Of a stretch of DNA of 64,000 nucleotides, positions 2,412-32,583 are shown piece by piece. The notes under the pieces are model-generated. The model was given only the letters and a program-made list of their open reading frames with translations. It ran no database searches and was not told the origin of the DNA. Source of the DNA: a virus; IMG/VR virus record IMGVR_UViG_3300045988_046889; one strand, written 5' to 3'. A program made the translations under genes and the position numbers. How positions within the stretch are numbered: the first letter of the stretch is position 1; every line of letters starts with the position of its first letter.

Positions 2412-2485
2412 TGGCTGATGGGGGACTCCAACTCCCAACCTGAGGTTTAGGAAACCTCTGCTCTATGCAGTTGAGCTAATCAGCC
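2412..2485 (-). tRNA. tRNA-Arg(CCT)
   Basis: Reverse complement folds as a cloverleaf: acceptor GGCTGAT/ATCAGCC, anticodon stem GAGGT/ACCTC with loop TTCCTAA; D- and T-loops are atypical (T-loop TTGGAGT). Confidence 0.45.
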
Positions 2486-2752
2486 TTTTGCATTTTCTGT
2501 TAATGAATGACAATTAGGACATAATACTTGAAGATTATCTTCACAGTTATTTTCCGAATTACCATCAATATGATGAATTTGAAGTGGTACTTTATTGGTA
2601 TAAGGATTTACTTCTCCCCATCCACATTTTTCACATTTGTAGTTTACTTTCTCCAGTAAGTAATTTCTTATTGGAGAGCTACAGGTGAATCCATTTGTAC
2701 CATTAATTTCTCCTGATTTCCATGCTTTAATATATTGTTGTTTTTTGTACAT
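2480..2752 (-). CDS. HNH homing endonuclease
   Basis: CEKCGWGE...LQIHHIDGNSENNCEDNLQVLCPNCH = CxxC...HH...N...CxxC HNH motif; the stop codon overlaps the 5' end of tRNA-Arg(CCT). Confidence 0.65.
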   Translation of the reverse strand: MYKKQQYIKAWKSGEINGTNGFTCSSPIRNYLLEKVNYKCEKCGWGEVNPYTNKVPLQIHHIDGNSENNCEDNLQVLCPNCHSLTENAKG

Positions 2753-6305: not shown

Positions 6306-6310
6306 CTAAT

Positions 6311-6443: not shown

Positions 6444-6704
6444 ATGGGATTCAGCCTAGTCTTGAAAACTAAGGGAACAGTAAAATGTTTGGGGGTCGGG
6501 ACCTCATCTTTCCGCATGAATAGCAAAAGAATAGGTAATATAGGAGAAGCTAAAGCTTTAGCTAAATTTGTAGAATTAGGTATCCCTGTTTATATACCAT
6601 TTGGTGACAATGAATCAGCAGACTTAATAGCTGAATTTAATGGTAAACTAAACAAGATACAATGTAAAACTACTGCTGCCATAAGTGAGCAATATGGAGA
6701 GTAA
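6444..6704 (+). CDS. hypothetical small protein inside the tRNA array
   Basis: 86-aa ORF with ATG start; its last codons overlap the 5' end of tRNA-Ser(GCT). Confidence 0.25.
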   Translation: MGFSLVLKTKGTVKCLGVGTSSFRMNSKRIGNIGEAKALAKFVELGIPVYIPFGDNESADLIAEFNGKLNKIQCKTTAAISEQYGE

Positions 6705-6781
6705 ATTGCTGAGGTAGCAATCCCCTCTGCTAAAGGGTGAGTACAATAAAATGTATGTGTTTCGAGTACACTGCTCTCCGC
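6697..6781 (+). tRNA. tRNA-Ser(GCT), long variable arm
   Basis: acceptor GGAGAGT/GCTCTCC (7 bp, one GU), D-stem ATTG/CAAT, anticodon loop CTGCTAA, 16-nt variable arm, T-arm TGTGT-TTCGAGT-ACACT. Confidence 0.5.
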
Positions 6782-6884
6782 AATAAACATTATGTAGGAG
6801 TTAAGGTATGAGGCTGGGTTCTTCCTACTTATATAGGTGTAATAGTGTACATAAAAACTTATGTAAAGCCAGCCAACGATAACA

Positions 6885-6957
6885 TAGTAGTAGCCTAATG
6901 GGTGGGGCACTGCATTTGGGATGCAGAGGATGCAGGTTCGAGTCCTGTCTACTATAC
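6885..6957 (+). tRNA. tRNA-Pro(TGG)
   Basis: acceptor ATAGTAG/CTACTAT, anticodon stem CTGCA/TGCAG with loop TTTGGGA, T-loop TTCGAGT. Confidence 0.65.
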
Positions 6958-6969
6958 TAATCATTAATG

Positions 6970-7042
6970 GGGAGGTAGCATAAATGGATAATGCGCTAGA
7001 TTTGCACTCTGGAAGATTGGGTTCGAGTCCCACCTGCTCCAC
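6970..7042 (+). tRNA. tRNA-Ala(TGC)
   Basis: acceptor GGGGAGG/CTGCTCC including the G3:U70 alanine identity pair; anticodon stem CTAGA/TCTGG with loop TTTGCAC; T-loop TTCGAGT. Confidence 0.65.
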
Positions 7043-7125
7043 ATTGTTTTCTTGTTTTTCATAATACTAAGCTATGCTTGAACCCTCTTTTGGGCAGTTA
7101 GAGGTTAAAGAAACTGCCCTATCAA

Positions 7126-7199
7126 TGCTCCTTAGTTCAGTGGTTCAGAATAGTTCCCTTACAAGGAAAAGGTCATAGGTTCGAGTCCTATAGGAGCAA
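7126..7199 (+). tRNA. tRNA-Val(TAC)
   Basis: acceptor TGCTCCT/AGGAGCA, anticodon loop CTTACAA, T-arm ATAGG-TTCGAGT-CCTAT. Confidence 0.6.
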
Positions 7200-7204
7200 C
7201 TAAT

Positions 7205-7276
7205 GGGGATGTAGCTGGAAGGTCTATGCACTTGGCTGTTAACCAAGAGATAAAAGTTCGATTCTTTTTATCCCCG
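7205..7276 (+). tRNA. tRNA-Asn(GTT)
   Basis: acceptor GGGGATG/TATCCCC, anticodon stem CTTGG/CCAAG with loop CTGTTAA, T-loop TTCGATT. Confidence 0.6.
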
Positions 7277-7284
7277 CAAATTTT

Positions 7285-7356
7285 AGGTTCTTAGTTTAAT
7301 TGGCAAAACACTTCTCTCCAAAAGAAGAGTTATGGGTTCGATTCCTTTAGAATCTG
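7285..7356 (+). tRNA. tRNA-Trp(CCA)
   Basis: acceptor AGGTTCT/AGAATCT, D-stem GTTT/AAAC, anticodon stem CTTCT/AGAAG with loop CTCCAAA, T-loop TTCGATT. Confidence 0.65.
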
Positions 7357-7362
7357 CATTAT

Positions 7363-7434
7363 TGGCACATCTTCTAATGGTCAGGAAGCTACTCTGATAA
7401 GGTAGTAATCAAGGTTCAATTCCTTGTGTGCCAA
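7363..7434 (+). tRNA. tRNA-Ile(GAT)
   Basis: acceptor TGGCACA/TGTGCCA, anticodon stem CTACT/GGTAG with loop CTGATAA, T-arm CAAGG-TTCAATT-CCTTG. Confidence 0.65.
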
Positions 7435-7440
7435 CTATAT

Positions 7441-7512
7441 TCTGATGTACTTCAACGGTAGAAGGCTGCTCTCATAAGGCAGTAGTTAGTGGTTCAAGTC
7501 CACTCATCAGAA
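7441..7512 (+). tRNA. tRNA-Met(CAT) (elongator, initiator or Ile2-type not resolved)
   Basis: acceptor TCTGATG/CATCAGA, anticodon stem CTGCT/GGCAG with loop CTCATAA, T-arm AGTGG-TTCAAGT-CCACT. Confidence 0.65.
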
Positions 7513-7518
7513 CTTCAT

Positions 7519-7592
7519 ACTCACTTAGCTCAGTTGGTTAGAGCAGGAATCTTATACATTCAAGGTCAATGGTTCAAGTCCATTAGTGAGTA
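7519..7592 (+). tRNA. tRNA-Ile(TAT) (tentative)
   Basis: acceptor ACTCACT/AGTGAGT, D-region GCTCAGTTGGTTAGAGC, 4-bp anticodon stem with loop CTTATAC, T-arm AATGG-TTCAAGT-CCATT. Confidence 0.45.
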
Positions 7593-7596
7593 CTAA

Positions 7597-7666
7597 TGCT
7601 CCTATAGCTGAATTGGTTAAAGCAACAGTCTCTTAAACTGTGGGTTCAAGTCCCAGTGGGAACACT
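7597..7666 (+). tRNA. degenerate tRNA-like element (anticodon-arm-like ACAGT-CTCTTAA-ACTGT would read CTT/Lys; no valid acceptor stem or variable loop)
   Basis: 5' half resembles a tRNA (GCTCCTATAGCTGAATTGGTTAAAGCA); the T-arm-like hairpin ACTGtGGG-TTCAAGT-CCCAGT abuts the anticodon arm; the 3' end cannot pair with the 5' end. Confidence 0.3.
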
Positions 7667-7669
7667 CAT

Positions 7670-7741
7670 TTCCCTAAAGCATTGGTGGTGATGCTAGAGA
7701 CCTTTAATCTCTGGAACTAGGTTCAACTCCTAGTGGGGAAA
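7670..7741 (+). tRNA. tRNA-Lys(TTT)
   Basis: acceptor TTCCCTA/TGGGGAA, D-stem GCAT/ATGC, anticodon stem AGAGA/TCTCT with loop CCTTTAA (C at position 33 is unusual), T-arm CTAGG-TTCAACT-CCTAG. Confidence 0.55.
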
Positions 7742-7770
7742 CATAATTGTTTAACTCCAAATTTTACAGT

Positions 7771-7878
7771 TATGAGAAGAGTTCTTGATTTTATTAAGAA
7801 AGCTGGTAATGTTTATGTAAGAATCATTGCTAAGAGTCAGATGATGACTCCTACAGGGTCTATTCCAATACCGGAATA
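7771..7878 (+). CDS. possible 35-aa micro-ORF in a gap of the tRNA array
   Basis: ATG...TAA ORF (MRRVLDFIKKAGNVYVRIIAKSQMMTPTGSIPIPE); no other support. Confidence 0.15.
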
Positions 7879-7905
7879 ACCCTTCATTTGGAGGTAAACT
7901 AATTA

Positions 7906-7988
7906 GGGGTAGCTTTAATGTGGTGAATTAAAGCAGACTGTAAATCTGCTGCCATGGGCTATTTAAGGTTCGATTCCTTTCTGCCCCA
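7906..7988 (+). tRNA. tRNA-Tyr(GTA), long variable arm
   Basis: acceptor GGGGTAG/CTGCCCC, anticodon stem GCAGA/TCTGC with loop CTGTAAA, 14-nt variable arm, T-arm TAAGG-TTCGATT-CCTTT. Confidence 0.6.
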
Positions 7989-8055
7989 CTTCAATAGAAA
8001 TCAAAGTCCTTGACTTATGGAAGGTGATGCAGGTAGAGATGCAAATAAGTCATTT

Positions 8056-8130
8056 GGGTACTGGGCAGGTCTGGTGACATTGCGTGAGACTGAAAATCTC
8101 AAGAACAAAGTTTGATTCTTTGAGTACCCA
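8056..8130 (+). tRNA. tRNA-Phe(GAA)
   Basis: acceptor GGGTACT/AGTACCC, anticodon stem TGAGA/TCTCA with loop CTGAAAA, T-arm CAAAG-TTTGATT-CTTTG. Confidence 0.65.
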
Positions 8131-8136
8131 CCTAAT

Positions 8137-8224
8137 GCCCCTTTGGTGGAACAGGTAGACACAATAGCCTTAGAAGCTATGCTGAAGTAATAGTAAGGTA
8201 AGAGTTCGAGTCTCTTAGGGGGTA
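8137..8224 (+). tRNA. tRNA-Leu(TAG), long variable arm
   Basis: acceptor GCCCCTT/AGGGGGT, anticodon stem ATAGC/GCTAT with loop CTTAGAA, 19-nt variable arm, T-arm AAGAG-TTCGAGT-CTCTT. Confidence 0.6.
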
Positions 8225-8280
8225 CTAAAAATAATTTGAAAATAATTAAGTAAATGCTTGGTTATATCATAAGTTTTACT

Positions 8281-8288
8281 TAACTTTG
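8281..8288 (+). promoter_or_regulatory. Bacteroidota-type -7 promoter element (TAacTTTG)
   Basis: taactttgca 21 nt upstream of the ATG at 8309. Confidence 0.4.
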
Positions 8289-8308
8289 CATTATTAAAAT
8301 AAGAGAAT

Positions 8309-8755
8309 ATGTTTGAGGAAGAGAGTTTATTTACTCCAATAGAATCAGATAGGGATATGTTATCCGGTTCTTCACAACTATTCATAGATTTCTTGAATCA
8401 GATTGAAGGTTGGAAGACTAAATGTAAGAATCTACATTGGGCAGCTCCTAAAAAGAATATACATGTATATCTTGATGAGTTCCTTGAAATCCTATCAGAC
8501 TACCAAGATAGTCTTGCAGAAGGTTACATGGGCATACTAGGTAAGATGCAGCCTAATGCTATCAAAGGCACTTCAAGTGATGCATTGAATGCTTACACAT
8601 TTATAGCAGAGGTTAAATCTGCCACCTTAGCATTTTATGCTAAGATACCACAGGATGTTATCTATAAGGGTATTACTTCAGAATGTGAGACTTTCATTCA
8701 GAACATCAACAAGTATGATTACTTGTTCCACTTATGTGATATAAGACCATATTAA
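8309..8755 (+). CDS. hypothetical protein embedded in the tRNA array
   Basis: 148-aa ORF with ATG start and its own -7 promoter motif. Confidence 0.5.
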   Translation: MFEEESLFTPIESDRDMLSGSSQLFIDFLNQIEGWKTKCKNLHWAAPKKNIHVYLDEFLEILSDYQDSLAEGYMGILGKMQPNAIKGTSSDALNAYTFIAEVKSATLAFYAKIPQDVIYKGITSECETFIQNINKYDYLFHLCDIRPY

Positions 8756-8761
8756 GACACC

Positions 8762-8834
8762 GTCCCCTTAGTGTTAATGGTTAGCAAGCTTGTCTTGTAA
8801 ACAAGAAGAGAAGGTTCAAATCCTTTAGGGGGCT
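8762..8834 (+). tRNA. tRNA-Thr(TGT)
   Basis: acceptor GTCCCCT/AGGGGGC, anticodon stem CTTGT/ACAAG with loop CTTGTAA, T-arm GAAGG-TTCAAAT-CCTTT. Confidence 0.6.
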
Positions 8835-9020
8835 CACAAGTTACTAAAAGCTGTCTTATCTACAGTGAGAGAGTAACACTCAATGCTACTAGATAAACCT
8901 CGGCAGGAGCTGACCTGCGCCACTGAAATTAAAAAGCTCGATGAGGTGTAGGTGATTGAGGGTGCAAGTTAAGGTGATACTTGCAATGCCTAAGTACCAG
9001 TTGCCAAATCTTAGGCTCTT

Positions 9021-9092
9021 GTAGATATGGTGTTAGCGGTAGCATATGACATTGCCAATGTCAAGGGGTCAGTTCAAGTCTGATTATCTACT
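9021..9092 (+). tRNA. tRNA-Gly(GCC)
   Basis: acceptor GTAGATA/TATCTAC, anticodon stem TGACA/TGTCA with loop TTGCCAA, T-arm GTCAG-TTCAAGT-CTGAT. Confidence 0.65.
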
Positions 9093-9096
9093 CAAT

Positions 9097-9167
9097 GTGG
9101 GATTAGTGTAATGGTAACATGTAACCCTTCCAAGGTTAATTTGACAGTTCGAGTCTGTTATCCCACT
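9097..9167 (+). tRNA. tRNA-Gly(TCC)
   Basis: acceptor GTGGGAT/ATCCCAC, anticodon stem TAACC/GGTTA with loop CTTCCAA, T-arm GACAG-TTCGAGT-CTGTT. Confidence 0.65.
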
Positions 9168-9175
9168 CTAACATC

Positions 9176-9243
9176 GCGGAGAGAATTGGTATTCAATCCA
9201 GTCTCATAAGCTGGACTCCAAGTGTTCGATTCACTTCTCCGCA
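9176..9243 (+). tRNA. tRNA-Met(CAT), second copy
   Basis: acceptor GCGGAGA/TCTCCGC (7/7), anticodon stem CCAGT/GCTGG with loop CTCATAA, T-loop TTCGATT; the D-arm is short. Confidence 0.55.
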
Positions 9244-9259
9244 ACTAGTTTAAATTGAT

Positions 9260-9963: not shown

Positions 9964-10251
9964 ATGGGAGAAAAGGAAGAACTTAGGCATGAACAGCCAT
10001 CTAAGATGAGTTATGAACAGTTGGAGAATGTGGCTCATCAATTGAGTGAACAAGTTAAGCAGTTGTACATGAGCCTTCAGAAATCTAATCTGGAGAATAC
10101 ATTCCAAAGACTTAACTATTTATTTAAGGTGGTAGAAAATGGCCACGCATTTAAGCCGGATTTCTTGAATAAGTGTACAGAGGAAATTGAAAATATGATG
10201 GCAATTCCTGAGGAGGAACAAGAGAAAGCAACTGACAAAGCTGGAGAGTAA
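9964..10251 (+). CDS. hypothetical acidic protein
   Basis: 95-aa ORF with ATG start. Confidence 0.45.
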   Translation: MGEKEELRHEQPSKMSYEQLENVAHQLSEQVKQLYMSLQKSNLENTFQRLNYLFKVVENGHAFKPDFLNKCTEEIENMMAIPEEEQEKATDKAGE

Positions 10252-10712
10252 TGCCATATAAAGACGCTCTCAAAAATAAGGAGTATAAAAGGCAATGGCA
10301 CATAAGAAATAGAGATAGATTACTTGAAAGAGCAAAGATTTCATATCATAATAATCCTGCTCCAAAGATAGCGCAATCAAGGAAATATAGGGAAAATAAC
10401 CCCTCAAAAGCTAAAGAATACTATAAAGATAATAGATTAAAGAATATAGGACTAGTCTTAAGCAGAAGAGATAAAAATAAAGAGGAGGCTATTCTTTCTA
10501 AAGGTGGAAGATGTGAGATATGTGGATTCAAATATAATGGCAAAAATGCTGTTTGTTTCGATTTTCATCATATTAACCCAAATGAGAAGAGATGTAATCC
10601 TTCTACTGCTCTGAGACTTTCAAAAGAGAGGAGGGATGAGGAACTTTCAAAGTGTCTATTAGTGTGTGCAAATTGTCATAGATTAATACATAATAGCAGG
10701 CATGATAAGTGA
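10251..10712 (+). CDS. HNH endonuclease
   Basis: CEICGF...FDFHHINPNEKR...CANCH = HNH motif; basic N-terminus. Confidence 0.6.
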   Translation: MPYKDALKNKEYKRQWHIRNRDRLLERAKISYHNNPAPKIAQSRKYRENNPSKAKEYYKDNRLKNIGLVLSRRDKNKEEAILSKGGRCEICGFKYNGKNAVCFDFHHINPNEKRCNPSTALRLSKERRDEELSKCLLVCANCHRLIHNSRHDK

Positions 10713-11088
10713 GAGACCTAATAACATAATAAGGATACCAACTTCACTATCAGTGAATTTCTTCAAGTTGTGGCTCATGTTCCTAGAACCTTTTCATAAG
10801 TTAACCAAAAGAGAGATAGATGTTGCTGCATCTTTTGTGAAGCAAAGATATGAACTCAGTAAAGTTATCAAGGACAGTGAAATACTTGATAGGGTTACAA
10901 TGAGTGAGGATACAAAGAAGAAGGTGAGGGAAGAGTGTAATATTACTCTTCCACACTTTCAAGTAATTTTGGGTAAATTAAGGAAGAACAAAGTCATAGT
11001 AGATGGCAAGATAAATCCCAAATTCATTCCTAATATCAATGCAGATAATGATGCCTTTCAGTTGTTATTACTCTTCGAGTTAAAATGA
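10702..11088 (+). CDS. hypothetical protein
   Basis: 128-aa ORF with ATG start, overlaps the upstream gene by 11 nt. Confidence 0.45.
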   Translation: MISERPNNIIRIPTSLSVNFFKLWLMFLEPFHKLTKREIDVAASFVKQRYELSKVIKDSEILDRVTMSEDTKKKVREECNITLPHFQVILGKLRKNKVIVDGKINPKFIPNINADNDAFQLLLLFELK

Positions 11089-12374: not shown

Positions 12375-12716
12375 ATGTTAGAACACTTTATAGAGGGACT
12401 TAATAATCATATTAAGGGAAGAAGAGAAGTTTTGGGCATTCAGACTACAGGTCATTTGGTTTTGCAAAGAGAGATTATCCCACATAGTACTTTTAAGGTT
12501 TTGAAGACTTATAAGTATACTATTTGGTTTGTCAAAGATTTCAAGACATATGAGGTACTTACACTAAAGCATACAGTAAGGTCTCTTACTGGTCAGGAAG
12601 AGTCTGTGAATAAGGATATGAGTGTTACATTATCTGAAATGTTGTTTAATTGGGTAGGTTCATCATTCTATGATGAAGTCATAAGGGGAGAATATAATGG
12701 AATTTCAGAGGATTAA
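12375..12716 (+). CDS. hypothetical protein
   Basis: 113-aa ORF with ATG start, overlaps the TerL start. Confidence 0.45.
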   Translation: MLEHFIEGLNNHIKGRREVLGIQTTGHLVLQREIIPHSTFKVLKTYKYTIWFVKDFKTYEVLTLKHTVRSLTGQEESVNKDMSVTLSEMLFNWVGSSFYDEVIRGEYNGISED

Positions 12717-14985
12717 AATGAACAAATATCAGACTGAGCTTACTGAGGAATTGGTTAATAGCCTTCCTCAGGAAGTTCAGGACCAATTATTTGATATTAT
12801 AAATAATGTAGAGTTTGTCAAGAGACTGATAAGTCCTACAAGGGAATATGCCAAAGACAGGCCAAGGGATGATAGGGGTAGAATTATTGTAGATTTAGCC
12901 AATCCCCATATACTTGAGAATATGGATTACTTCAGGTCATCTGCCATACATTATGAGAAGTATGGTACATTTACCAACCTTAGACCTAATGCCAATCCTA
13001 ATAGTGAATATGGTAAGTGGATAAGAGAAGAGAGAAGAAGGATTTGGGATGGATATGTAAGGGAATCTGATGGAGAATGGGTTACAGGATATTTGTATTG
13101 GTTCCTTAATTATTCTCCTATGATGCTATCCAAGATTAGGGAGTACAAAGATAAGGATGGTAAAAAGAGGAAATCAAAGAGAGCAGATAGAGTAGAGTCA
13201 TTGCCTGAGTGCTGGGAAGGTATATATTGGAGATTCCATTGCTTAAACCAAGCATCAAATGGTGGCCTTTACAACAACTTTGAAGGAGGTCAGCATATGG
13301 CTGAGCTTGCATCCAGAGGTAAAGGTAAGTCATATAGTCTTGCATCAATTCTCAATCACATATTTGTAGTGGGTGAGAACGAGGAAGCACATGAGAAAGT
13401 AAAGGGTATAGTAACTGCTTATCAGAAGGAGTACCTTACCAAGGATGGTGTACTTAATAAGTTTGTAGATATGGCTAACTTCTGTGCAACTAATACTCAG
13501 TTCCCAAGAAAGAGATTAAAGAACTCTTTACAGGAAATGACTTGGATAATGGGGTATAAGGATGTGGAACTGGACATCGAAAGAGGTACCCAGAATACAG
13601 TCTTAGGTGTATCATCTAAGGATGATGAATCTAAGTTGAGAGGTAAGAGAGCTGCCAAGATTCTTATCGAGGAGTTTGGTACTTTCCCTAGACTTGTAGA
13701 CCTATATAATGTATTGTTACCTTCAGTACAGGATGGTGATATTATCTTTGGACAAATCTATATGTTAGGTACTGCTGGTGATAATGAATCAGACTTTGCT
13801 GGTGCCCAAGAAATCATGTATAATCCAAGGGGTTACAATATGTATGCCTTACCTAATGTGTTTGATAAGTATAATCAGGGTAAGCCTTATTTTGTGTTCT
13901 TCTTCCCCGGTTATGTAAACAGAAAAGGATGCTACAATGAAGATGGGGTATCTGATATTATCAAGGCACTGATTGAGATTCTTATGAACAGATACAGGGT
14001 AAAGTATAATTCTACTGACCCTAATACTATTATCAAGACTATTGCTGAGGTTCCTATTACACCTGCTGAAGCTATTGTGAAGACAGGTGTAAACATGTTC
14101 CCTGTAGCTGATTTGACTGAAAGAATAGGTCAATTGGATTCCAATCCTACAGAATATAATGATGTCTATGTAGGTGATTTGGTATTTGGCAAGAATGGCC
14201 AGGTGGAGTATAAGCCTACTTCTGCACAGCCTATCAGAGATTTCCCACATAAGGATAATAAGATTGAGGGAGCTATCGAAATATTTCAGATGCCTGAGAT
14301 TGATAAGAATACCAACAAGCCTTACAATGACAGGTATATATTAGGTGCTGACCCTTATGATGATGATGAGTCAAATACTATGTCATTAGGTTCCATATTT
14401 GTATTGGATTTGTGGACTGATAGAATAGTAGCTGAGTACACAGGAAGACCTTCTTTTGCAGATGATTACTATGAAATTTGCAGAAAACTGTGCCTCTTCT
14501 ATAATGGTAGACTGAACTACGAGTATAATAAGAAAGGCTTATTTTCTCACTTCTCGACAAGAAATAGCCTTTATCTGCTTACAGATGTGTTGGATTTCTT
14601 GAAGGAGAAGCAGATGATGAAGGATGGGATAGGTAATAAGAGTAAAGGTACTAATGCCTCACCTGCCATAAATGCCTATGCAAGAAGTAGGTTGAGAAGT
14701 TGGTTACTGTCCCCAGTTCCTGTTATTCAGACTATTGATGGAGAAAGTAAGGAAGTAATGGTTCCAAGACTGTTTACTGTAAGAAACAGGGCACTATTAA
14801 AGGAGCTTATCAGCTACAACCCTGAGGGTAACTTTGATAGAATATCAGCTATGGGAATGTTGATGCTCCTCAGAGAAGATAAAATGATAAAGTACCAAGG
14901 TAATGTAGGTAGGGACAAGCAAGAGAATGCTGAAAATAGCTATGATGGGGAAGACCCATTCTTCAAGAGAAATTATCGTCCTTGA
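12697..14985 (+). CDS. terL: terminase large subunit
   Basis: 762 aa; ATPase P-loop-like ELASRGKGKSYSLAS in the N-terminal half, acidic nuclease-type motifs in the C-terminal half (ILGADPYDDDE); size and position next to the portal. Confidence 0.6.
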   Translation: MEFQRIKMNKYQTELTEELVNSLPQEVQDQLFDIINNVEFVKRLISPTREYAKDRPRDDRGRIIVDLANPHILENMDYFRSSAIHYEKYGTFTNLRPNANPNSEYGKWIREERRRIWDGYVRESDGEWVTGYLYWFLNYSPMMLSKIREYKDKDGKKRKSKRADRVESLPECWEGIYWRFHCLNQASNGGLYNNFEGGQHMAELASRGKGKSYSLASILNHIFVVGENEEAHEKVKGIVTAYQKEYLTKDGVLNKFVDMANFCATNTQFPRKRLKNSLQEMTWIMGYKDVELDIERGTQNTVLGVSSKDDESKLRGKRAAKILIEEFGTFPRLVDLYNVLLPSVQDGDIIFGQIYMLGTAGDNESDFAGAQEIMYNPRGYNMYALPNVFDKYNQGKPYFVFFFPGYVNRKGCYNEDGVSDIIKALIEILMNRYRVKYNSTDPNTIIKTIAEVPITPAEAIVKTGVNMFPVADLTERIGQLDSNPTEYNDVYVGDLVFGKNGQVEYKPTSAQPIRDFPHKDNKIEGAIEIFQMPEIDKNTNKPYNDRYILGADPYDDDESNTMSLGSIFVLDLWTDRIVAEYTGRPSFADDYYEICRKLCLFYNGRLNYEYNKKGLFSHFSTRNSLYLLTDVLDFLKEKQMMKDGIGNKSKGTNASPAINAYARSRLRSWLLSPVPVIQTIDGESKEVMVPRLFTVRNRALLKELISYNPEGNFDRISAMGMLMLLREDKMIKYQGNVGRDKQENAENSYDGEDPFFKRNYRP

Positions 14986-15064
14986 CCTTGTCAGTAAATT
15001 TAGTAAAACGGGAATGGACACTTAATAAATTATTTATATACTTGCATGGGATTATATTTTTATT

Positions 15065-15072
15065 TAACTTTG
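15065..15072 (+). promoter_or_regulatory. Bacteroidota-type -7 promoter element (TAacTTTG)
   Basis: ttaactttgcaaag about 22 nt upstream of the ATG at 15095. Confidence 0.4.
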
Positions 15073-15094
15073 CAAAGTAACTAGATTGAAGTAT

Positions 15095-15772
15095 ATGGAA
15101 GAGAAGTACATAGTATACCTACATATAAATAAGACAAATAATAAAGTCTATGTAGGAATAACCCGTTTCACGAAGAATCCTAATAGGAGATGGAGAAATG
15201 GCATAGGATACAAAGAGACTTCTTTGATATATAAGGCTGCTCTGAAATATGGATGGGGCACTTTCAGTCATGTAATACTTTGCAAGACTACAAAAGAAAG
15301 GGCATGTCTATTAGAGCAGTCTCTTATAAAGCTCTACAAGAGTAGAGGACTAAGCTATAATATAGGGTTGGGGGGAGAGGGTGCTGAATCCTTTCCAGAT
15401 GAAACTAAGGAGAAACTTAAACAGTATGCTCCTTGGATTAAGGGTAAACATCATACTGAAAAAGCTAAGAAGAAAATAAGTGAAGCAGGAAGAAGACCTT
15501 GTTCTGAAGAGACTAAAAAGAAAATCAGTAGAGCTAATAAAGGTCATAACAATGGCATGTATGGTAAGCATGTTTCTGACTATGTGAAGAAATTAATATC
15601 TGATAAATTTAGCAAGCCTGTACTTCAATTGGATTTGAATAATAACATTATTGATAGATTTTCCTCTGCTTCAGAGGCAGAAAGGTACTTAAATGGTAGA
15701 GGCAGTCATATAGGCTGTTGCTGTCTTGGCAAGAGGAAAACTGCTTATGGATATAAATGGAAATATGAGTAA
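15095..15772 (+). CDS. GIY-YIG homing endonuclease (free-standing, between terL and portal)
   Basis: KYIVYLHINKTNNKVYVGIT...R...YN = GIY-(10)-YVG motif plus a basic NUMOD-like repeated C-terminus; the track start (15086) is TTG, ATG at 15095. Confidence 0.6.
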   Translation: MEEKYIVYLHINKTNNKVYVGITRFTKNPNRRWRNGIGYKETSLIYKAALKYGWGTFSHVILCKTTKERACLLEQSLIKLYKSRGLSYNIGLGGEGAESFPDETKEKLKQYAPWIKGKHHTEKAKKKISEAGRRPCSEETKKKISRANKGHNNGMYGKHVSDYVKKLISDKFSKPVLQLDLNNNIIDRFSSASEAERYLNGRGSHIGCCCLGKRKTAYGYKWKYE

Positions 15773-18194
15773 TTTTATACAACTTCCTCCACAGCAGTTA
15801 CCTTTTAGCAAAAAGAACAGAAAGTGGAGGAAACAAATTTTGGATTGGGCAGATAGTAAGACCTTCTTCAATTATAACCTAGTCAGAAAATCTGTAGTAC
15901 ATAAGAAGATTAACTACGACCTTCTTAATGGCAAGCTTCATATGAGTGACCTTGAGATGATATTGAATCCTGAAGAGATACAGGCAAGTTTTGTACCTAA
16001 CAGGATTCAACATTATCCCATTATGAACAGTAAGTTAAATGTACTGAGGGGGGAAGAGAGCAAAAGAGCTTTTGATTGCAGGGTAGTGATAACTAATCCT
16101 AATGCCATCTCTGAGATAGAGAATAATAAGAAACAGGAATTACTACAAAGACTGCAAGAATGGGTCTCAGCCTCTTATCAGTCAGAAGAGGCTGCTGCTA
16201 AGGAGCTTGAGAAAATAGGTGACTATTACACCTATGAATGGCAGGACATTAGAGAAATCAGAGCCAATGCCTTGTTGAATCATTATAAGACGGAGTTGAA
16301 TCTGCCCTTGATTCTCAACCAAGGGTTTATAGATGCAATGGCAACAGGGGAGGAAATGTACCAATGTGACATAGTAGGAGGAGAGCCAATTGTTGAAAGG
16401 TTGAATCCCATGAAGGTTAGGATATTCAAGTCAGGATATAGCAATAGGGTTGAGGATGCTGACATGATAATCATTGAGGACTATTGGAGTCCCGGCAGGG
16501 TTATTGATACTTTCTATGACGTATTGACAAAGAAGGATATAGAGTACATAGAGAAGATACCTGACCATGTAGGACAGGCTGCTGTAGACTCTATGGACAA
16601 TGTTGATGAAAGGTATGGATTTGTCAATAACTACATGATTGGGGATGAGATAAATACTGAAGCAGAAGGATTCTTTTGGGACCCCTTAGGAGGATGCGAT
16701 GGCATAGCCAATTCCTTATTACCCTTTGATGTTGCTGGAAATATCAGGATACTTAGAGTATATTGGAAGTCAAGAAGGAGAATAAAGAAGATAAAAAGAT
16801 ATGACCTTCAAACAGGTGAAGAGATATTTAACTTCTATCCTGAGACCTATATAGTAGATAAGGATGCTGGTGAAGAGGAGCAGATATTTTACATAAACGA
16901 GGCTTGGGAAGGAACAAAGATTGGCACTGACATATATGTCAATATGAGGCCAAGAGTAGTTCAATACAATAGACTCAGTAACCCTTCAAGATGCCATTTT
17001 GGAATTATAGGCTCAATTTATAATCTGAATGACAACAGGCCCTTTAGCTTGGTAGATATGATGAAGCCGTATAATTACATGTATGATGTTATACATGATA
17101 GGCTTAATAAGCTACTGGCAAGGAACTGGGGAACATTATTAAGACTTGACTTTGCCAAAAAGCCTAAGGGCTGGGATATAGAAAAGTGGTTGTACTATGC
17201 AAAGATTATGGGTATTGCAGTTGAGGATAGCTTCAAAGAAGGTAACATAGGTGCAGCTACAGGAAAAATAGCAGGTGCCCTGAATAATGCATCCACAGGA
17301 GCAATTCCTACATCTGACGGTAACCAGATACAGCAGTATATAAACCTTATTGAGTTCATAAAGATGGAGATGACTGAGGTTGCTGGTATTACTAAACAAA
17401 GGGAAGGTCAGGTAAGCAATAGAGAGACAGTAGGTGGAGTAGAGAGAAGTATGGTACAATCCTCATACATTACAGAATGGCTGTTTATGACACATGATGA
17501 TGTAAAGAGGAGAGTATATGAATGCTTACTTGAAACAAGTAAGGCTGCACTGAAAGGAAGGAAGAAGAAGTTCCAGTATATTCTCTCAGACGGGTCTTTG
17601 AAAGTAATGGAGATAGATGGAGATGAGTTTGCAGAGTCAGATTATGGGCTTGTAGTGGATAGTAGTAATGGAATTCAGGAACTGAACTCAAAACTTGATA
17701 CTTTGGCACAAGCAGCTTTGCAGAATCAGGCTTTGACACTCTCAACTATTATGAAGTTGTTTGGCTCGTCTTCACTTGCTGAAAAGCAAAGGCTTGTTGA
17801 AAAGGATGAGAGAAATCTACAGGAAAGACAGGCTCAGGCACAGCAACAGCAATTACAGGTACAGCAACAGGAAATAGAGCAAAAGGCTCAATTGGAGCAA
17901 GCTAAGTTGCAACAGGAAGATGCCCTCAATAGAAGAGATAATGAGACCAAGATACTGATTGCACAAATGCAGGCTATGAGTAAAGGTAGTGAAGATGGGG
18001 ATTCTATAGAATCAGAGTATTCACAGGAGGCCAAAGACAAACTACTTGAGCAGATAAGGGAATTTGATTTAAGACTTAAGCTTGACAGGGAAAGGCTGGA
18101 GCATGATAAGGAGAAGGCCGAAACTGATGCAAGGCTCAAGGAAAAACAAATAAATAAGCAGAAAGCAACTTCTAATAACAATAATAAGCAATGA
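15747..18194 (+). CDS. portal protein
   Basis: About 815 aa, immediately after terL; Gln-rich C-terminal coiled coil (QAQAQQQQLQVQQQEIEQKAQLEQ); the track start at 15726 is TTG; ATG candidates at 15747 or 15765, both overlapping the endonuclease stop at 15772. Confidence 0.5.
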   Translation: MDINGNMSNFIQLPPQQLPFSKKNRKWRKQILDWADSKTFFNYNLVRKSVVHKKINYDLLNGKLHMSDLEMILNPEEIQASFVPNRIQHYPIMNSKLNVLRGEESKRAFDCRVVITNPNAISEIENNKKQELLQRLQEWVSASYQSEEAAAKELEKIGDYYTYEWQDIREIRANALLNHYKTELNLPLILNQGFIDAMATGEEMYQCDIVGGEPIVERLNPMKVRIFKSGYSNRVEDADMIIIEDYWSPGRVIDTFYDVLTKKDIEYIEKIPDHVGQAAVDSMDNVDERYGFVNNYMIGDEINTEAEGFFWDPLGGCDGIANSLLPFDVAGNIRILRVYWKSRRRIKKIKRYDLQTGEEIFNFYPETYIVDKDAGEEEQIFYINEAWEGTKIGTDIYVNMRPRVVQYNRLSNPSRCHFGIIGSIYNLNDNRPFSLVDMMKPYNYMYDVIHDRLNKLLARNWGTLLRLDFAKKPKGWDIEKWLYYAKIMGIAVEDSFKEGNIGAATGKIAGALNNASTGAIPTSDGNQIQQYINLIEFIKMEMTEVAGITKQREGQVSNRETVGGVERSMVQSSYITEWLFMTHDDVKRRVYECLLETSKAALKGRKKKFQYILSDGSLKVMEIDGDEFAESDYGLVVDSSNGIQELNSKLDTLAQAALQNQALTLSTIMKLFGSSSLAEKQRLVEKDERNLQERQAQAQQQQLQVQQQEIEQKAQLEQAKLQQEDALNRRDNETKILIAQMQAMSKGSEDGDSIESEYSQEAKDKLLEQIREFDLRLKLDRERLEHDKEKAETDARLKEKQINKQKATSNNNNKQ

Positions 18195-19060
18195 AAAGAT
18201 TTAGAGATATTATACAAGATATAAAAGCTCCAAGTACAAGTGACCTCTGGATTAATAATGGAGAGTTGAAGTACTATACTAGTAATGGCTGGAAAGCCAT
18301 TGCTGGTAATGGCTCTTCCGATGTATATGTTCTACCGGGTAACCTTCAAACAACAGAAGGATGGTCTACAACAGACGTAGAATCTATTGTAGGGAATTGG
18401 GATGAGTTTACAAAAGCTGTCTCAGGTGGTAAGATAATTGTTGGTTATTTTCAAAACGGGGGACAATTTGTCAAAAGTACTGCCTCAGTGATAGAAAATG
18501 ACGGGGTAACCTTTTTAAGTTTTAGCTTTTATCAGATTCTTTGTGTATATGTTATTGACCAAAGTTATATAGCTATTGCTGCTATTGATAATTTTCTTTG
18601 TGTGAGTTCTGTTGTAGACAGACTAAATAGTTCAGGAACTGAATTACCTCTCTCTGCCAACCAAGGTAGGATTCTTAATGGTAGGGTAACAGAATTAGAG
18701 AGTAAGTCTAATGTTGCAGTGCTTACACCTACAGGTACAAAACTAATGGAGTTGGTATCCAGTAGTCCTAATGTTACACAAGAGCAGTTGGTTGAAGCAG
18801 GTTTCACTCCTGAAATATGTAGAAGGTTGAATGCTGGAGAAGTGATTTACATGAGTGGTGAATGTGCTGGTTTTGGTAATGATGCTTTGTATCCAATACA
18901 GGGTATTGCCCCTAATTCCTCTCCTGACTTAGTACCGTCTAGATTGTGCTACTGTCACTATAGTAGTTATAATGTGGATGGCACTGCTAATGGAGGGTGC
19001 TTTACTACAATTAAGAAGCAATCCTCAGGTCAGTACTTTGTAGATTATATTGAGGTGTAG
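18191..19060 (+). CDS. tail fibre-like protein
   Basis: 289 aa; N-terminal motif DLWINNGELKYYTSNGWKAI is shared with neighbouring fibre genes. Confidence 0.4.
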   Translation: MKRFRDIIQDIKAPSTSDLWINNGELKYYTSNGWKAIAGNGSSDVYVLPGNLQTTEGWSTTDVESIVGNWDEFTKAVSGGKIIVGYFQNGGQFVKSTASVIENDGVTFLSFSFYQILCVYVIDQSYIAIAAIDNFLCVSSVVDRLNSSGTELPLSANQGRILNGRVTELESKSNVAVLTPTGTKLMELVSSSPNVTQEQLVEAGFTPEICRRLNAGEVIYMSGECAGFGNDALYPIQGIAPNSSPDLVPSRLCYCHYSSYNVDGTANGGCFTTIKKQSSGQYFVDYIEV

Positions 19061-22468: not shown

Positions 22469-23280
22469 CACAAATAGAGGCAGTAAAGAAGGTAGGAGGT
22501 TCCCTACCTTCTGCTACAAAACAATTTTGTACAGCCTCTTGGCTTGCAGGCCATTCTAGTATATTTGATACCAACTCCCTACAAGGGTATGAAGCAAAAG
22601 ACTTTGTGAGTGAAATGCATATAAAGCCTGCTATAGTAACAACTAAATATGAAATAATAATTCCTGAGGTGAGGGTTTCTTTTGGATTTGAAAGTGGCAC
22701 TCCTCGAGGATTTACACGTCTTAGTGACTCTGACCAGTTATCACAGACTAAGGCAGTCTTATGTGCAGTACCTGTTGATGGTGGTCAGATTTCTTCAAGT
22801 GTATATACTCCTACTAATGGTGGTAGAGATGACAATTATGGTGCACAGTATATGCTATTCTCAGGCATGAAAATATATGTTGTTGCAGGCACTTCACTAG
22901 CTAAGTTATACATAGTATTGTATAATGACCAAAGTACCATGGTTCAGTATAATAATAAGAGCATTACCAATCTTATGTCAGGTAACAACATATATAAGCT
23001 GGTTAATGCTACTATGAGAAATAGTTCCGCTTACAGTAACCTGTTTAATGGTGCAAATTACACAAAGACACAAGCAGTAGGTGATTCTAATGGTAATGCT
23101 ACTAATTCTGTGTGGTGTGCTATGCTTCCATTGGCAGATGATGGAAGATCTAATGGGAGTTATTCAGTAGGTTCAAACATGGATGCACCTCCCACTAATG
23201 TCAATTATAACCAGCAATTATACAACTTCAAGGGTTCTATAATTTACAACAAATTAAATTCATTTACTCCAACTACATAG
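22450..23280 (+). CDS. tail fibre-like or receptor-binding protein
   Basis: 276 aa, Asn/Ser/Thr-rich, overlaps the upstream fibre gene by 19 nt. Confidence 0.35.
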   Translation: MGREFMTQIEAVKKVGGSLPSATKQFCTASWLAGHSSIFDTNSLQGYEAKDFVSEMHIKPAIVTTKYEIIIPEVRVSFGFESGTPRGFTRLSDSDQLSQTKAVLCAVPVDGGQISSSVYTPTNGGRDDNYGAQYMLFSGMKIYVVAGTSLAKLYIVLYNDQSTMVQYNNKSITNLMSGNNIYKLVNATMRNSSAYSNLFNGANYTKTQAVGDSNGNATNSVWCAMLPLADDGRSNGSYSVGSNMDAPPTNVNYNQQLYNFKGSIIYNKLNSFTPTT

Positions 23281-23282
23281 CT

Positions 23283-23897
23283 ATGAGAAAGATATTAGTA
23301 AGTATTATATCAGTGATTATGCTGGCTTCCATATCCTGTTCCATATATTACTGCAATAGGTATAAGAAAATATCTAATGAGTTGGCTATTGCAGTGAATA
23401 ACAATAAAGCATACTCCTTGGAGAACAGTTCCCTGAAGAAGGAAAATAGAGTGTATAAGCTAACTGCTGAGCAGCTTGAGTATTACAGTGATTCCATTAC
23501 TGTTGAAATGGACAGGATTAGAAAGGAGTTGAAGATAAAGGATAAGGATTTGCAATACTTACAATATCTGTTATCTACATCAGAAAGGATAGATACTGTT
23601 ACTTTCCAAGATACCATATTCAGTGAAACAACATTTCATGTTGATACTCTGATTGGGGATAAATGGTATCAGTTGAAGCTGGGAATGAAATTCCCTAATG
23701 TCATTACAGTGCATCCTAAATTTGTAAGTGAGAAATACATAGTTACACATAGCAAGAAAGAGACTGTAAATCCTCCTAAGAAATTTTTTCTGTTTAGATG
23801 GTTTCAGAAGAAACATAGAGTGGTGGAAGTTACTATTGTGGAAAATAGTCCCTATGTGAATAATAAGCAGCAAAAATTTATTGAAATAATTAAATGA
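23283..23897 (+). CDS. membrane-anchored protein (N-terminal TM), lysis-cassette candidate
   Basis: 204 aa, N-terminal hydrophobic helix SIISVIMLASISCSIYY. Confidence 0.35.
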   Translation: MRKILVSIISVIMLASISCSIYYCNRYKKISNELAIAVNNNKAYSLENSSLKKENRVYKLTAEQLEYYSDSITVEMDRIRKELKIKDKDLQYLQYLLSTSERIDTVTFQDTIFSETTFHVDTLIGDKWYQLKLGMKFPNVITVHPKFVSEKYIVTHSKKETVNPPKKFFLFRWFQKKHRVVEVTIVENSPYVNNKQQKFIEIIK

Positions 23898-23898
23898 C

Positions 23899-24279
23899 AT
23901 GATTGACCTAGGTATATTAATTACTGGAGGAGTAGGGATAATAACCACAGTAATCAGTGGTTGGACTTCTTGGTTCTTTGCAAGAAGAAAGTATAATAGT
24001 GAGGTAGATAATAACCTCATAGAGAACATGCAGCAGTCTTTGGAGTTTTATAAGAAGTTGTCTGACGATAACAAGAACAGGCTTGACGAGGTTCTTAAAA
24101 GAAATGCAGAGCTGGAACAGGAGATAAGGGATTTAAGGAAGCAGATGTTCAGTCTAATGAACTCCATCTGTACTGACCTTACTTGTCAGTTGAGGAAAAG
24201 AAACTTGAATTTATTTAATGAGCAAAATGGAACTGATAGTAGACAGGAAATGGAAGAAACAGAGTTACACGATAAGTAA
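23899..24279 (+). CDS. N-terminal TM + coiled-coil protein (holin or i-spanin-like candidate)
   Basis: 126 aa; TM helix GILITGGVGIITTVISGWTSWFFA followed by a charged coiled coil. Confidence 0.35.
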   Translation: MIDLGILITGGVGIITTVISGWTSWFFARRKYNSEVDNNLIENMQQSLEFYKKLSDDNKNRLDEVLKRNAELEQEIRDLRKQMFSLMNSICTDLTCQLRKRNLNLFNEQNGTDSRQEMEETELHDK

Positions 24280-25003: not shown

Positions 25004-25006
25004 GAT

Positions 25007-30161: not shown

Positions 30162-31538
30162 ATGGCTGGAAAATTAGGTAAGTTTCAGATGGTGGGCTTC
30201 CAACATTGGAAGGGTTTGACTAAAGAGAACCACCTAGGCTCTATCTATCAGTTAGCTCCGCAAAGAGCTACAAACCTAATGGTACAACTGCTGGCCTTCT
30301 ATAGAGGAAAGACACTTGATTCATTCTTGAATCAGTTCCCTGTAAAGGAGTTCGAGGATGACAGTGAATACTACTGGGACGTTATTGGTTCTTCAAGAAG
30401 GAATATTCCTTTGGTAGAGGCAAGAAAAGAGGATGGAACAAAGGTTGAAGATGATGGTAGTATGATTGGAGAGGGTACTTCTCCCTTCTATCTTGTTTTC
30501 CCTGAGGACTGGTTTGCAGATGGTGAGTACATTGTGGGTAATCTAAATGAACTGTACCAATTCAGAATTTTAGGAGACCCTAGAATGGAAGGTACCAATG
30601 CAGTTTATAAGGTAGAACTTGCTGGAGGTAATACAGCAGGAATTCCTGCTGAAAGGCTACTTGCAGGAGAGAGATTCTCTATTGAAGCTGCATTTGTAGA
30701 AAAGGAACTATCAAGAAAAGTTGGTGATGTAAGATATACAAGCCCTGTTTCTATGAGGAATGAGTGGTCTGTAGTAAGAATCCAACACAAGGTTCCGGGT
30801 TCAATGCTGAGCAAGAAGTTGGCTGTAGGTATTCCTATTATCAAGGAGACTGATGGTAGATATACCAAGTCAATAGCTAAAATGTGGATGCATAATGTGG
30901 ACTTTGAGGTAGAACAACAATTCTCTGAGTACAAGAACAATGCTCTTGCATTTGGTAGAAGCAACAGAAACTCCAATGGTGAATATATGAACATTGGTAA
31001 GTCTGGTGGTGTAATCAAGACTGGTGCTGGTCTGTTTGAGCAGATGGAAGTTGCTAATACTATGTACTACAATGTATTCAGCTTGAAGCTTCTTGAGGAT
31101 GCCCTATATGAGCTTTCTGCTTCTAAATTGGACTTTGGTGATAGATACTTCCTAATCAAGACTGGTGAAAGAGGTGCTATTCAATTCCACAAGGAAGTGT
31201 TGAAGACAGTATCAGGTTGGACACAGTTTGTTCTTGATAACAACTCTATTGGTGTTGTTCAGAAGACTCAGTCTCAGTTGCATCAAAATGCCCTGAGTGC
31301 AGGTTTCCAATTTGTAGAATATAGAGCACCTAATGGTGTAAGGGTTAAGATTGATGTAGACCCATTCTATGATGACCCTGTTAGAAATAAGATACAACAT
31401 CCAAATGGAGGTGTTGCCTTCTCTTACAGATATGATATTATGTATATTGGTACTATGGACCAACCTAATATCTTCAAGTGTAAGATTAAGGGTGATAATG
31501 AATATAGAGGTTACCAATGGGGATTAATGGCTGCATAA
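30162..31538 (+). CDS. putative major capsid protein
   Basis: 458 aa; position after the scaffold-like gene, size and mixed alpha/beta composition; no motif-level proof. Confidence 0.4.
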   Translation: MAGKLGKFQMVGFQHWKGLTKENHLGSIYQLAPQRATNLMVQLLAFYRGKTLDSFLNQFPVKEFEDDSEYYWDVIGSSRRNIPLVEARKEDGTKVEDDGSMIGEGTSPFYLVFPEDWFADGEYIVGNLNELYQFRILGDPRMEGTNAVYKVELAGGNTAGIPAERLLAGERFSIEAAFVEKELSRKVGDVRYTSPVSMRNEWSVVRIQHKVPGSMLSKKLAVGIPIIKETDGRYTKSIAKMWMHNVDFEVEQQFSEYKNNALAFGRSNRNSNGEYMNIGKSGGVIKTGAGLFEQMEVANTMYYNVFSLKLLEDALYELSASKLDFGDRYFLIKTGERGAIQFHKEVLKTVSGWTQFVLDNNSIGVVQKTQSQLHQNALSAGFQFVEYRAPNGVRVKIDVDPFYDDPVRNKIQHPNGGVAFSYRYDIMYIGTMDQPNIFKCKIKGDNEYRGYQWGLMAA

Positions 31539-31665
31539 GCCTTTGCACATTTCTCAGTTCCCATAGCCTGACCTAGAAACAGAAGAGAGGCTAAAAATAA
31601 AACAAGGTTAATTGCTGGAAGTTCCTTAGAGCTTTCACTGCTTTTTAAACTTCAAACATTTAAAT

Positions 31666-32253
31666 ATGGAAGTTAAAGAATTATGGAAGTCCCTTGAAGA
31701 GTATAAGGGTATTAGAGTAAGCTCAATTGGTAGAATATGGAAAGCTGCCAATAAGAGTAGAAAAGAGAGAATATTGACAGAGTTTCCAAAAGATAGAGAT
31801 GGTTATTGTAGAGTCTCAGTTCAGAAATTGGATGGAACTTGGACTTCACAACCAGTACATAGATTAGTTGCTAAAGCATTTATCCCTAATCCAGATAATA
31901 AACAAGCAGTTAATCATATAGATGGAAACAGACAAAATAATAGGATTGAAAATCTAGAGTGGGTAACTCCAAAGGAAAACGTAATACATTCTTTTAGATT
32001 TGGGTCAAGAAGAGTATATAAGGAAGTTCCTAAGAAGACAATTCTAACAGATTTTCAAATAAGTCAGATAGATAAACTTAGAGAGACATATACAGTCAAT
32101 CAGATTGCTAAACTCTTTAATATAGAATATCAATCTCTTAAAAACATAATTCATAAAAAGAAACAATGTGAAAGATTGGATAATCAGCAGCCAAGCATAT
32201 ATAATAGTATATATGAAGGTTCAGAGACTATCCCAGATGGGAGTAAGCATTAA
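31666..32253 (+). CDS. HNH homing endonuclease (HNH_3/NUMOD type)
   Basis: HRLVAKAFIPNPDNKQAVNHIDGNRQNNRIENLEWVTPKEN is the canonical HNH_3 motif; free-standing after the putative MCP. Confidence 0.65.
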   Translation: MEVKELWKSLEEYKGIRVSSIGRIWKAANKSRKERILTEFPKDRDGYCRVSVQKLDGTWTSQPVHRLVAKAFIPNPDNKQAVNHIDGNRQNNRIENLEWVTPKENVIHSFRFGSRRVYKEVPKKTILTDFQISQIDKLRETYTVNQIAKLFNIEYQSLKNIIHKKKQCERLDNQQPSIYNSIYEGSETIPDGSKH

Positions 32254-32583
32254 GTAATGCTGAAATGCCTTGCTCATCTAAATAGATGATGAAGATATAG
32301 TCCGAACTTTAGTGAAAGCTAAAGATATTACATGGGCACGATGTAATAGTAACATAAAAATGTGAGAAATCCATTTACAGGACAGATAGGTAATCCTTAC
32401 ATGTCATTTGATGAGGATGCTGCTGTAATACACAGAATGGCTACTCTTGGTATCTGTGTTCTTGACCCAACAAGAACTATGTCATTGATTCCTGCTATTT
32501 TGCAAGGATAAACTATAAAGGGGAGTAGGGGTAACTCCTGCTTCCCTTAATTTATTTTTATTTCTATTAAATAAGGAGAAGAT

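Follow-up and report, generated by a model that had tools for sequence, protein, structure and literature searches.

The free-standing Seg endonucleases of phage T4 (SegA-G) combine an N-terminal GIY-YIG domain with a C-terminal DNA-binding tail. They are encoded between conserved genes without an intron, are patchily distributed among close relatives and co-convert their flanks, which is a recognised hallmark of homing (PMC2988022). In this study, we analysed a 64,000-nucleotide stretch of viral DNA (IMG/VR record IMGVR_UViG_3300045988_046889, hereafter the window), in which a GIY-YIG gene with the same properties lies between the genes of the large terminase subunit (terL) and the portal protein. 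It differs from the Seg genes in that it belongs to a crAss-like phage of Bacteroidota and that its insertion point coincides exactly with the start codon of an essential late gene, whose promoter and leader it would have taken. Sequence similarity strong enough to assign it to one particular Seg family was neither sought nor found. With I-TevI of the T4 td intron the gene shares the catalytic core and the modular order of catalytic domain, NUMOD3-type linker and helix-turn-helix; however, I-TevI is intron-encoded, unlike the window gene, and the profile match between the two is weak. I-TevI represses its own promoter. Endonuclease genes that overlap or abut an essential gene are found in T4 as well (mobE/nrdA and segG/gene 32), and translational coupling was proposed for them (PMC2988022). 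However, mobE is the downstream gene and is down-regulated there, whereas in the window the endonuclease gene is upstream and the portal gene downstream. Finally, phage ICP1 and the zeta crAss-like phage Lera carry several endonuclease genes grouped around their terminase and capsid genes; genomes that are nearly identical nevertheless differ in the endonucleases they encode, and domains are swapped between endonucleases (PMC10448857, PMC12386605). The ICP1 enzymes belong to the T5orf172 and IPA-HNH families, and Lera to crAss family zeta, in contrast to Steigviridae here.

We consider it very likely that the open reading frame (ORF) at 15095..15772 encodes a free-standing homing endonuclease of the I-TevI/Seg type that is active or was so until recently, and that this gene, located at the portal start, spreads by intron-less homing. 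The gene belongs to a known class, in which it is unexceptional, and does not represent a new kind of system. Its value is that of a well-resolved natural example from crAss-like gut phages, in which a single site displays every stage in the life of a free-standing homing endonuclease (invasion, allele replacement, mosaic recombination, decay and loss), with the insertion point and the transfer tract defined to within tens of bases. The gene and its two neighbours are the following (lengths in amino acids, aa):

15095..15772, + strand: GIY-YIG homing endonuclease gene, 225 aa, from the ATG at 15095 to the TAA at 15770-15772 (Pfam and PHROG)
12697..14985, + strand: terL, large terminase subunit, left neighbour (PHROG 6681, E 2.9e-97)
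15765..18194, + strand: portal protein gene, right neighbour (PHROG 6547, E 1.5e-129; start matching IAS virus and cr85_1)

The phage is a crAss-like gut phage (Crassvirales, Steigviridae, Asinivirinae, Kahnovirus). In a megablast search with 12500-18500 the closest relative was the uncultured phage cr85_1 (MT774390, Kahnovirus oralis) with ~97% identity, while bajarodcaudo virus 1 and IAS virus were more distant matches.

The original prediction, made from the sequence alone, had placed a GIY-YIG gene between terL and portal, and the profile matches to the gene and its neighbours bear this out. Three Pfam domains were detected above the cut-off. GIY-YIG (PF01541) covers aa 4-84 (E 2.9e-7), which corresponds to a catalytic domain at 15104-15346. 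It is accompanied by NUMOD3 at aa 134-169 (15494-15601, E 1.9e-13) and the NUMOD1 helix-turn-helix at aa 174-208 (15614-15718, E 8.8e-5), and the protein thus possesses a separate C-terminal DNA-binding module (NUMOD3 plus NUMOD1/IENR1). The ORF also matches PHROG 314, annotated as 'homing endonuclease' (E 3.3e-36). A PDB search with the single sequence found nothing; only a profile of ten allele sequences reached the I-TevI catalytic domain (PDB 1MK0/1LN0), and this alignment is weak (E 1.4e-3). The residues Y8, Y19, R32, E74 and N89, equivalent to Y6, Y17, R27, E75 and N90 of I-TevI, are invariant in the ten sequences, and the motif degeneracy named earlier as a possible refutation is not seen. 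The ratio of nonsynonymous to synonymous polymorphism (pN/pS) is 0.1-0.25 for the intact copies, similar to terL and portal, and these copies are under purifying selection. The ORF encodes an intact I-TevI/Seg-type GIY-YIG endonuclease, which we predict to be active or recently active. The family is abundant, with 874 metagenomic homologues and clusters of 347-489 members; a literature search for GIY-YIG genes in crAss phages turned up only unrelated fungal papers.

The ORF is separate and in frame with neither terL nor portal. No group I intron signal was detected by an Rfam scan of the terL-portal region (14900-15900). Compared with empty sites, the insertion consists essentially of the ORF alone (~670 bp), and the gene is therefore free-standing, outside any intron or intein.

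To follow the gene in the population, we surveyed the terL-portal interval in 80 IMG/VR loci obtained from a terL-based scan (locus numbers are preceded by L):

Empty terL-portal site: 46 of 80 loci, in which terL and portal matches are ~95-185 nucleotides (nt) apart
Intact window-type allele, 225 aa: 5 of 80 loci, 96-99% aa identity to the window
Intact cr85-type allele, 227 aa: 7 of 80 loci, ~42% aa identity to the window
Intact L052-type allele, 228 aa: 2 of 80 loci
Intact third allele, 210 aa: 6 of 80 loci, ~60-63% aa identity to the window
Degenerate copies: 10 of 80 loci (frameshift in L006; deletions in L010, L021/23/64, L046, L067 and L068; disrupted hybrids in L078 and L083)
Uninformative or different: 4 of 80 loci (L061, L073, L074 and L075)

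An intact gene, in about four alleles, is therefore found in 20 of the 80 loci, and IAS virus and bajarodcaudo virus 1 lack the gene as well. Among close relatives, its presence is thus sporadic while its site is fixed. Another crAss-like contig, of ~102 kb, has a 64%-identical allele at this terL/portal site, and a 53% relative was found at a different site.

Sequence identities across the locus are discordant. At the nucleotide level, L017 and L011 are 86.1% identical in terL and 78.9% in portal (nt 200-2400, as for all portal values given here), but 99.6% in the endonuclease gene. Likewise, L014 and cr85_1 share 94.1% in terL and 82.5% in portal, but 100.0% in the endonuclease gene. The window and cr85_1 show the reverse, with 98.8% in terL, 97.4% in portal and 58.4% in the endonuclease gene. 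Near-identical endonucleases (99.6-100%) thus occur in phages whose terL and portal genes have diverged by 6-21%. Runs of informative sites allowed the transferred block, or co-conversion tract, to be delimited:

15033..15854, + strand: transferred block, made up of the gene, ~45-60 bp upstream of it and ~75-90 bp of the portal 5' end

L017 and L083, whose backbones are otherwise those of endonuclease-less phages, resemble the window only across 15048-15839 and 15033-15854, respectively. In L014 the cr85-like stretch is confined to 15051-15956, and the cr85-type tract thus reaches ~15956. In the three backbones, the transferred tracts stop at most ~60 bp upstream and ~90-190 bp downstream of the gene. 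Both the discordant identities and the tract boundaries point to horizontal transfer with co-conversion of short flanks, and short tracts of this kind on either side of the gene are classically the mark of homing (PMC2988022). Comparison with relatives had been proposed as a check of intron-less homing. It reveals presence/absence polymorphism, several alleles, decayed copies and co-converted flanks, and intron-less homing is therefore well supported for the GIY-YIG gene.

The alleles themselves are mosaic, as seen by pairwise alignment and sliding identity. The first segment of the window allele is the following:

15034..15162, + strand: mosaic segment 1, leader and codons 1-23, ~100% identical to the cr85-type allele

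Across the remainder of the catalytic domain (15163-15440) the window allele is unique, with ~60% identity to any sampled allele. From ~15440 to 15800, which takes in the DNA-binding tail and the first portal codons, its resemblance to the 210-aa third allele is 75-100%. Phage endonucleases are known to exchange domains (PMC10448857).

The point of insertion was deduced from relatives without the endonuclease, namely bajarodcaudo virus 1, IAS virus and ~46 IMG/VR loci. Upstream of the gene lies a motif that had been described as the gene's own Bacteroidota-type -7 promoter:

15042..15072, + strand: Bacteroidota-type promoter-like motif, with TTG at 15042-15044, a 20-nt spacer and TAACTTTG at 15065-15072

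This composite motif occurs 15 times in the window compared with 5.1 +/- 2.1 times in shuffled sequences, an about three-fold enrichment. A sigma-70 promoter and terminator scan was uninformative for this phage of Bacteroidota. Relatives without the endonuclease have kept the -7 box, the upstream TTG and the leader (...ATTGAAGTAT), and in these phages the three elements stand immediately before the portal ATG; the motif columns are invariant whether or not the gene is present. Thus, the motif is real, but it is not the endonuclease's own. Promoter and leader are those of the ancestral portal gene and would now drive the endonuclease gene, whose ATG sits exactly where the portal ATG is found in empty-site genomes. 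The element would thereby have captured the portal promoter and initiation region, and the portal gene would now start at the 3' end of the cassette.

It was also claimed that the endonuclease stop overlaps every plausible portal ATG (15747 or 15765). The overlap is confirmed for 15765, which is the conserved portal start in alignments with IAS virus, cr85_1 and others (MS[E/N]F...PPQQLP); the ATG at 15747 is inside the endonuclease ORF. Two features are found at this junction:

15765..15772, + strand: 8-nt overlap ATGAGTAA, containing the portal ATG and the endonuclease TAA
15732..15806, + strand: predicted RNA hairpin around the portal AUG, in which the endonuclease 3' end pairs with portal codons ~8-14

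It has been suggested that endonuclease translation occludes the portal start. Potentially, portal translation is coupled to or gated by the cassette through the ATGAGTAA overlap and the AUG-sequestering hairpin. Such a device would be an addition to homing and not an alternative to it, and we regard it as unlikely, although several observations favour it. The overlap ATGAGTRA is present in all alleles, with ATGAATGA in the 64%-identical allele of the other crAss-like phage, which is compatible with termination-reinitiation. The hairpin has a minimum free energy of -18 kcal/mol (z -2.07 on 15725-15805), and 100-nt z-scores are -1.9 to -3.1 for the 3' module of the window-type and third alleles, whereas empty sites are unstructured (z +0.2 to +0.8). 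Its 3' arm is built on synonymous portal variants (CAG CAG TTA) that are inherited with the gene, and all endonuclease remnants keep the gene's 3' end. However, the structure is not significant in the alleles of the cr85 type (z -0.14), the L052 type (z -0.5) and L086 (z +1.2). The RNAalifold consensus hairpin of 21 pairs contains a single compensatory change, and since the stems hardly vary, support from covariation is minimal. The hairpin over the portal AUG is therefore suggestive only, as a structure prediction.

The decayed copies speak against obligatory coupling. At least six natural lineages have survived although their upstream ORF is frameshifted or truncated, and therefore the portal gene neither needs translation of the full-length endonuclease nor is obviously blocked by it. 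The reading frame of the decayed copies runs into the portal start in frame in two cases and out of frame in ~6, which is the chance expectation and lends no support to obligatory coupling. Evidently, the portal can initiate on its own, and coupling or occlusion of its start by endonuclease translation is unproven. It may be speculated that the cassette makes itself hard to lose: lying between the portal initiation region and the portal AUG, and with a 3' module that pairs with portal codons 8-14 in a hairpin over this AUG, it would make portal synthesis dependent on ribosomes that read through its 3' end. This would explain why the 3' end is kept in all decayed copies and why the hairpin-completing portal variants travel with the gene, but we hold it to be distinctly improbable.

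The end of the gene is not peculiar to this site. Four IMG/VR contigs from another phage type (L095, L096, L098 and L106) encode a different GIY-YIG endonuclease with the same ...GYKWKYE* / AAATATGAGTAA end, and the embedded ATG starts an unrelated downstream gene (MSKKIP...) without a hairpin, a further point against the regulatory device. In this GIY-YIG family, the 3' end may regularly provide the following gene with its start codon. We also considered the common portal start of empty sites, ATGGGATATGAAATG, as a possible scar of the endonuclease end ...GGATATAAATGG; L063, a more distant relative without the endonuclease, has a similar portal start (ATGGGAAATAGT...).

Taken together, these comparisons suggest the following course of homing. 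The gene lies at the exact boundary of portal leader and portal start codon. Since its ATG has taken the former portal ATG position, its transcription and initiation would proceed from the ancestral portal promoter and leader. During co-infection, the enzyme would cut endonuclease-less Kahnovirus genomes near the terL-portal junction. Candidate targets are the equivalents of ~15033-15095 and/or 15765-15956 in empty-site genomes. Repair from the donor would then copy the gene with ~50 bp of upstream and ~75-190 bp of portal sequence. In the population, the site alternates between an empty state, occupation by one of about four mosaic alleles, and decay. In this scheme cleavage activity and site, promoter use and the mode of portal translation are inferred.

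Several points weigh against homing by an active enzyme. One third of the occupied sites (10 of 30) are decaying, and at least one copy counted as intact (L038) has a substitution in the YVG motif. Most census loci come from one IMG/VR dataset (3300045988), and independent events may be fewer than the counts. Moreover, ordinary homologous recombination during co-infection could in principle suffice to move the cassette, with no contribution from the nuclease. On this basis, the endonuclease might be an inactive or irrelevant passenger, and its patchiness the result of ordinary homologous recombination and deletion among co-infecting crAss-like phages. Frequent recombination in the region is indeed indicated by the mosaic alleles and the hybrids L078 and L083, and the share of degenerate sites is what a passenger might show. 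However, in three different backbones the recombined stretch ends close to the gene at either side, the identity of the copies contrasts with the divergence of their flanks, and the intact copies are under purifying selection, with all catalytic residues invariant. We therefore judge a passive passenger to be quite improbable.

A domesticated nuclease with a phage function (packaging with terL, degradation of host DNA or exclusion of competitors) is more improbable still: the gene adjoins terL, it is under purifying selection and terminase-adjacent HNH nucleases can help in cos cleavage (see the discussion in PMC10448857), but it is not a conserved syntenic component of the packaging module, being absent from more than half of the close relatives, it is replaceable by 42-63%-identical alleles, genomes with broken copies look viable, its product is a GIY-YIG enzyme with an I-TevI-like modular DNA-binding tail and not a packaging-type HNH protein, and phage competition would be a by-product of homing anyway.

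Further insertions were observed around terL. Additional GIY-YIG paralogues with 28-39% identity to that of the window lie 1-3 kb upstream of terL in relatives (L025 3576-4121, L032 2963-3508, L047 3454-4116, L054 3591-4121 and L069 4424-4993), and the genus therefore has further insertion sites. In L074 (5466-7388) and L075, whose terL is 60% identical, ~1.9 kb with three non-endonuclease ORFs (107, 307 and 143 aa) lies between terL and portal, and the junction thus accepts other cargo too. The terL genes of L077 (5001-8285), L069, L078, L079, L080 and L085 contain in-frame inserts of ~0.9-1.1 kb at no fewer than three positions (after aa ~215, ~340 and ~360), none of which is occupied in the window terL. 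L077 terL is a single ORF of 1094 aa; the Cys start, the ...HN|T end and the LAGLIDADG-like motif of its insert are indicative of an intein.

The original prediction had counted five free-standing endonucleases in the window, with one HNH gene right after the putative major capsid protein (MCP) gene. The coordinates of this HNH ORF are correct, but it lies inside an 838-bp insertion that splits the MCP gene, and so the number of free-standing genes is not five:

30162..31526, + strand: MCP exon 1, aa 1-455 (tblastn with cr85_1 MCP, 98.5%; PHROG 11589)
31527..32364, + strand: putative group I intron of 838 nt, an insertion inside the cr85_1 MCP gene (ribozyme core match at 32096-32324)
31666..32253, + strand: HNH ORF (NUMOD4 and HNH_3) inside the intron (Pfam/PHROG HNH)
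32365..32511, + strand: MCP exon 2, aa ~456-503 and stop (tblastn with cr85_1 MCP aa 455-503 at 32362-32508, 98%)

The exons rejoin into an intact reading frame, whereas a plain ORF call truncates the MCP at 31538. The Rfam model Intron_gpI (RF00028) scores 38.9 bits (E 4.3e-8 when 1.3 kb were searched), short of the gathering score of 50, and the insertion goes unreported at that threshold; stretches resembling the P7 and J8/7 consensus match in the RF00028 alignment. In cr128_1 and bajarodcaudo virus 1, too, the MCP gene is annotated as split and accompanied by endonuclease ORFs, with an HNH gene in cr128_1. The insertion, the exon mapping, the sub-threshold Rfam match and these annotated split genes together lead us to propose that the MCP gene is interrupted by a group I intron carrying an HNH gene, with splicing predicted. 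In group I introns, the splice junction usually follows U. The junction implied by cr85_1 (TTA|AGA) follows A instead, whereas a possible U-ending junction, GGAUU|AAAUCC, would cost one Arg codon. The arrangement resembles the I-HmuI-type HNH genes of phage group I introns, as a NUMOD4 and HNH_3 ORF is carried by an intron interrupting an essential gene, and it differs from them in the ribozyme score and in the junction. The gene models are corrected accordingly, with the portal start at 15765 and the MCP gene split by a putative intron. As a warning, terL, portal or MCP markers can be disturbed by mobile elements.

The remaining three HNH ORFs were found where they had been predicted, and all four HNH ORFs of the window have a Pfam and/or PHROG HNH match:

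10251..10712, + strand: free-standing HNH gene, 153 aa, between the ORF 9964-10251 and a VpsT-like gene at 10702-11088 (PHROG 2255, E 5.8e-20)
2480..2752, - strand: small HNH ORF, 90 aa, whose 3' end overlaps tRNA-Arg(CCT) at 2411-2485 (Pfam HNH, E 1.8e-5)
56109..56687, - strand: free-standing HNH gene with NUMOD4, HNH_3 and NUMOD1 (Pfam), between converging gene blocks

The predicted tRNA-Arg(CCT) overlap and the position at the convergence of two gene blocks were likewise recovered. The gene at 10251..10712, which has no Pfam match at E<0.01, is absent from cr85_1, where 43 bp are found at its site. It is present in 4 of ~70 relatives, and a different NUMOD4-HNH gene occupies the same site in 5 others. 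The site 10217-10711 is thus a second endonuclease hot spot with two unrelated HNH families (L007, L010, L039, L042 and L015, L052, L054, L068, L073) and is empty in most relatives; the gene downstream of it is 99-100% identical only in relatives with the same HNH gene. The region of the small ORF at 2480..2752 differs from cr85_1, and no DNA-binding module was detected in this ORF, so that a homing role is not established for it. The gene at 56109..56687 is shared with cr85_1 and PhiCrAssBcn14-18 and is absent from bajarodcaudo virus 1, cr112_1 and tikkala. A tblastn search across the window revealed no endonuclease paralogues beyond the five ORFs. These account for ~4% of the 64 kb, which does not support the high density claimed for this stretch: T4 encodes 15 such genes in 11% of its coding potential (PMC2988022), and five such ORFs have already been reported from a zeta crAss-like phage whose 91%-identical relative has none of them (PMC12386605). 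The view that positions next to terminase and capsid genes are classic sites agrees with their being known endonuclease hot spots (PMC10448857).

In whole-window blastn the window and cr85_1 are collinear at 94-99% except for a handful of indels. The mobile endonuclease gene explains why crAss-like genomes that are otherwise 97% identical show local interruptions. Compared with cr85_1, the window has a 598-bp insertion immediately before the MCP gene (29384-29982) within a 249-aa ORF (29379-30128) that has no Pfam match. About 2.3 kb of cr85_1 (91503-93808), comprising most of a ribose-phosphate pyrophosphokinase gene and neighbouring genes, is missing at window position ~1130, and ~2.5 kb (23089-25564), with a tail-protein gene and its neighbours, at ~27975. 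An extra tRNA-like Rfam match at 7598-7664 (40.6 bits) was not called by ARAGORN, and the window carries a dense array of 20 tRNA genes at 6074-9245.

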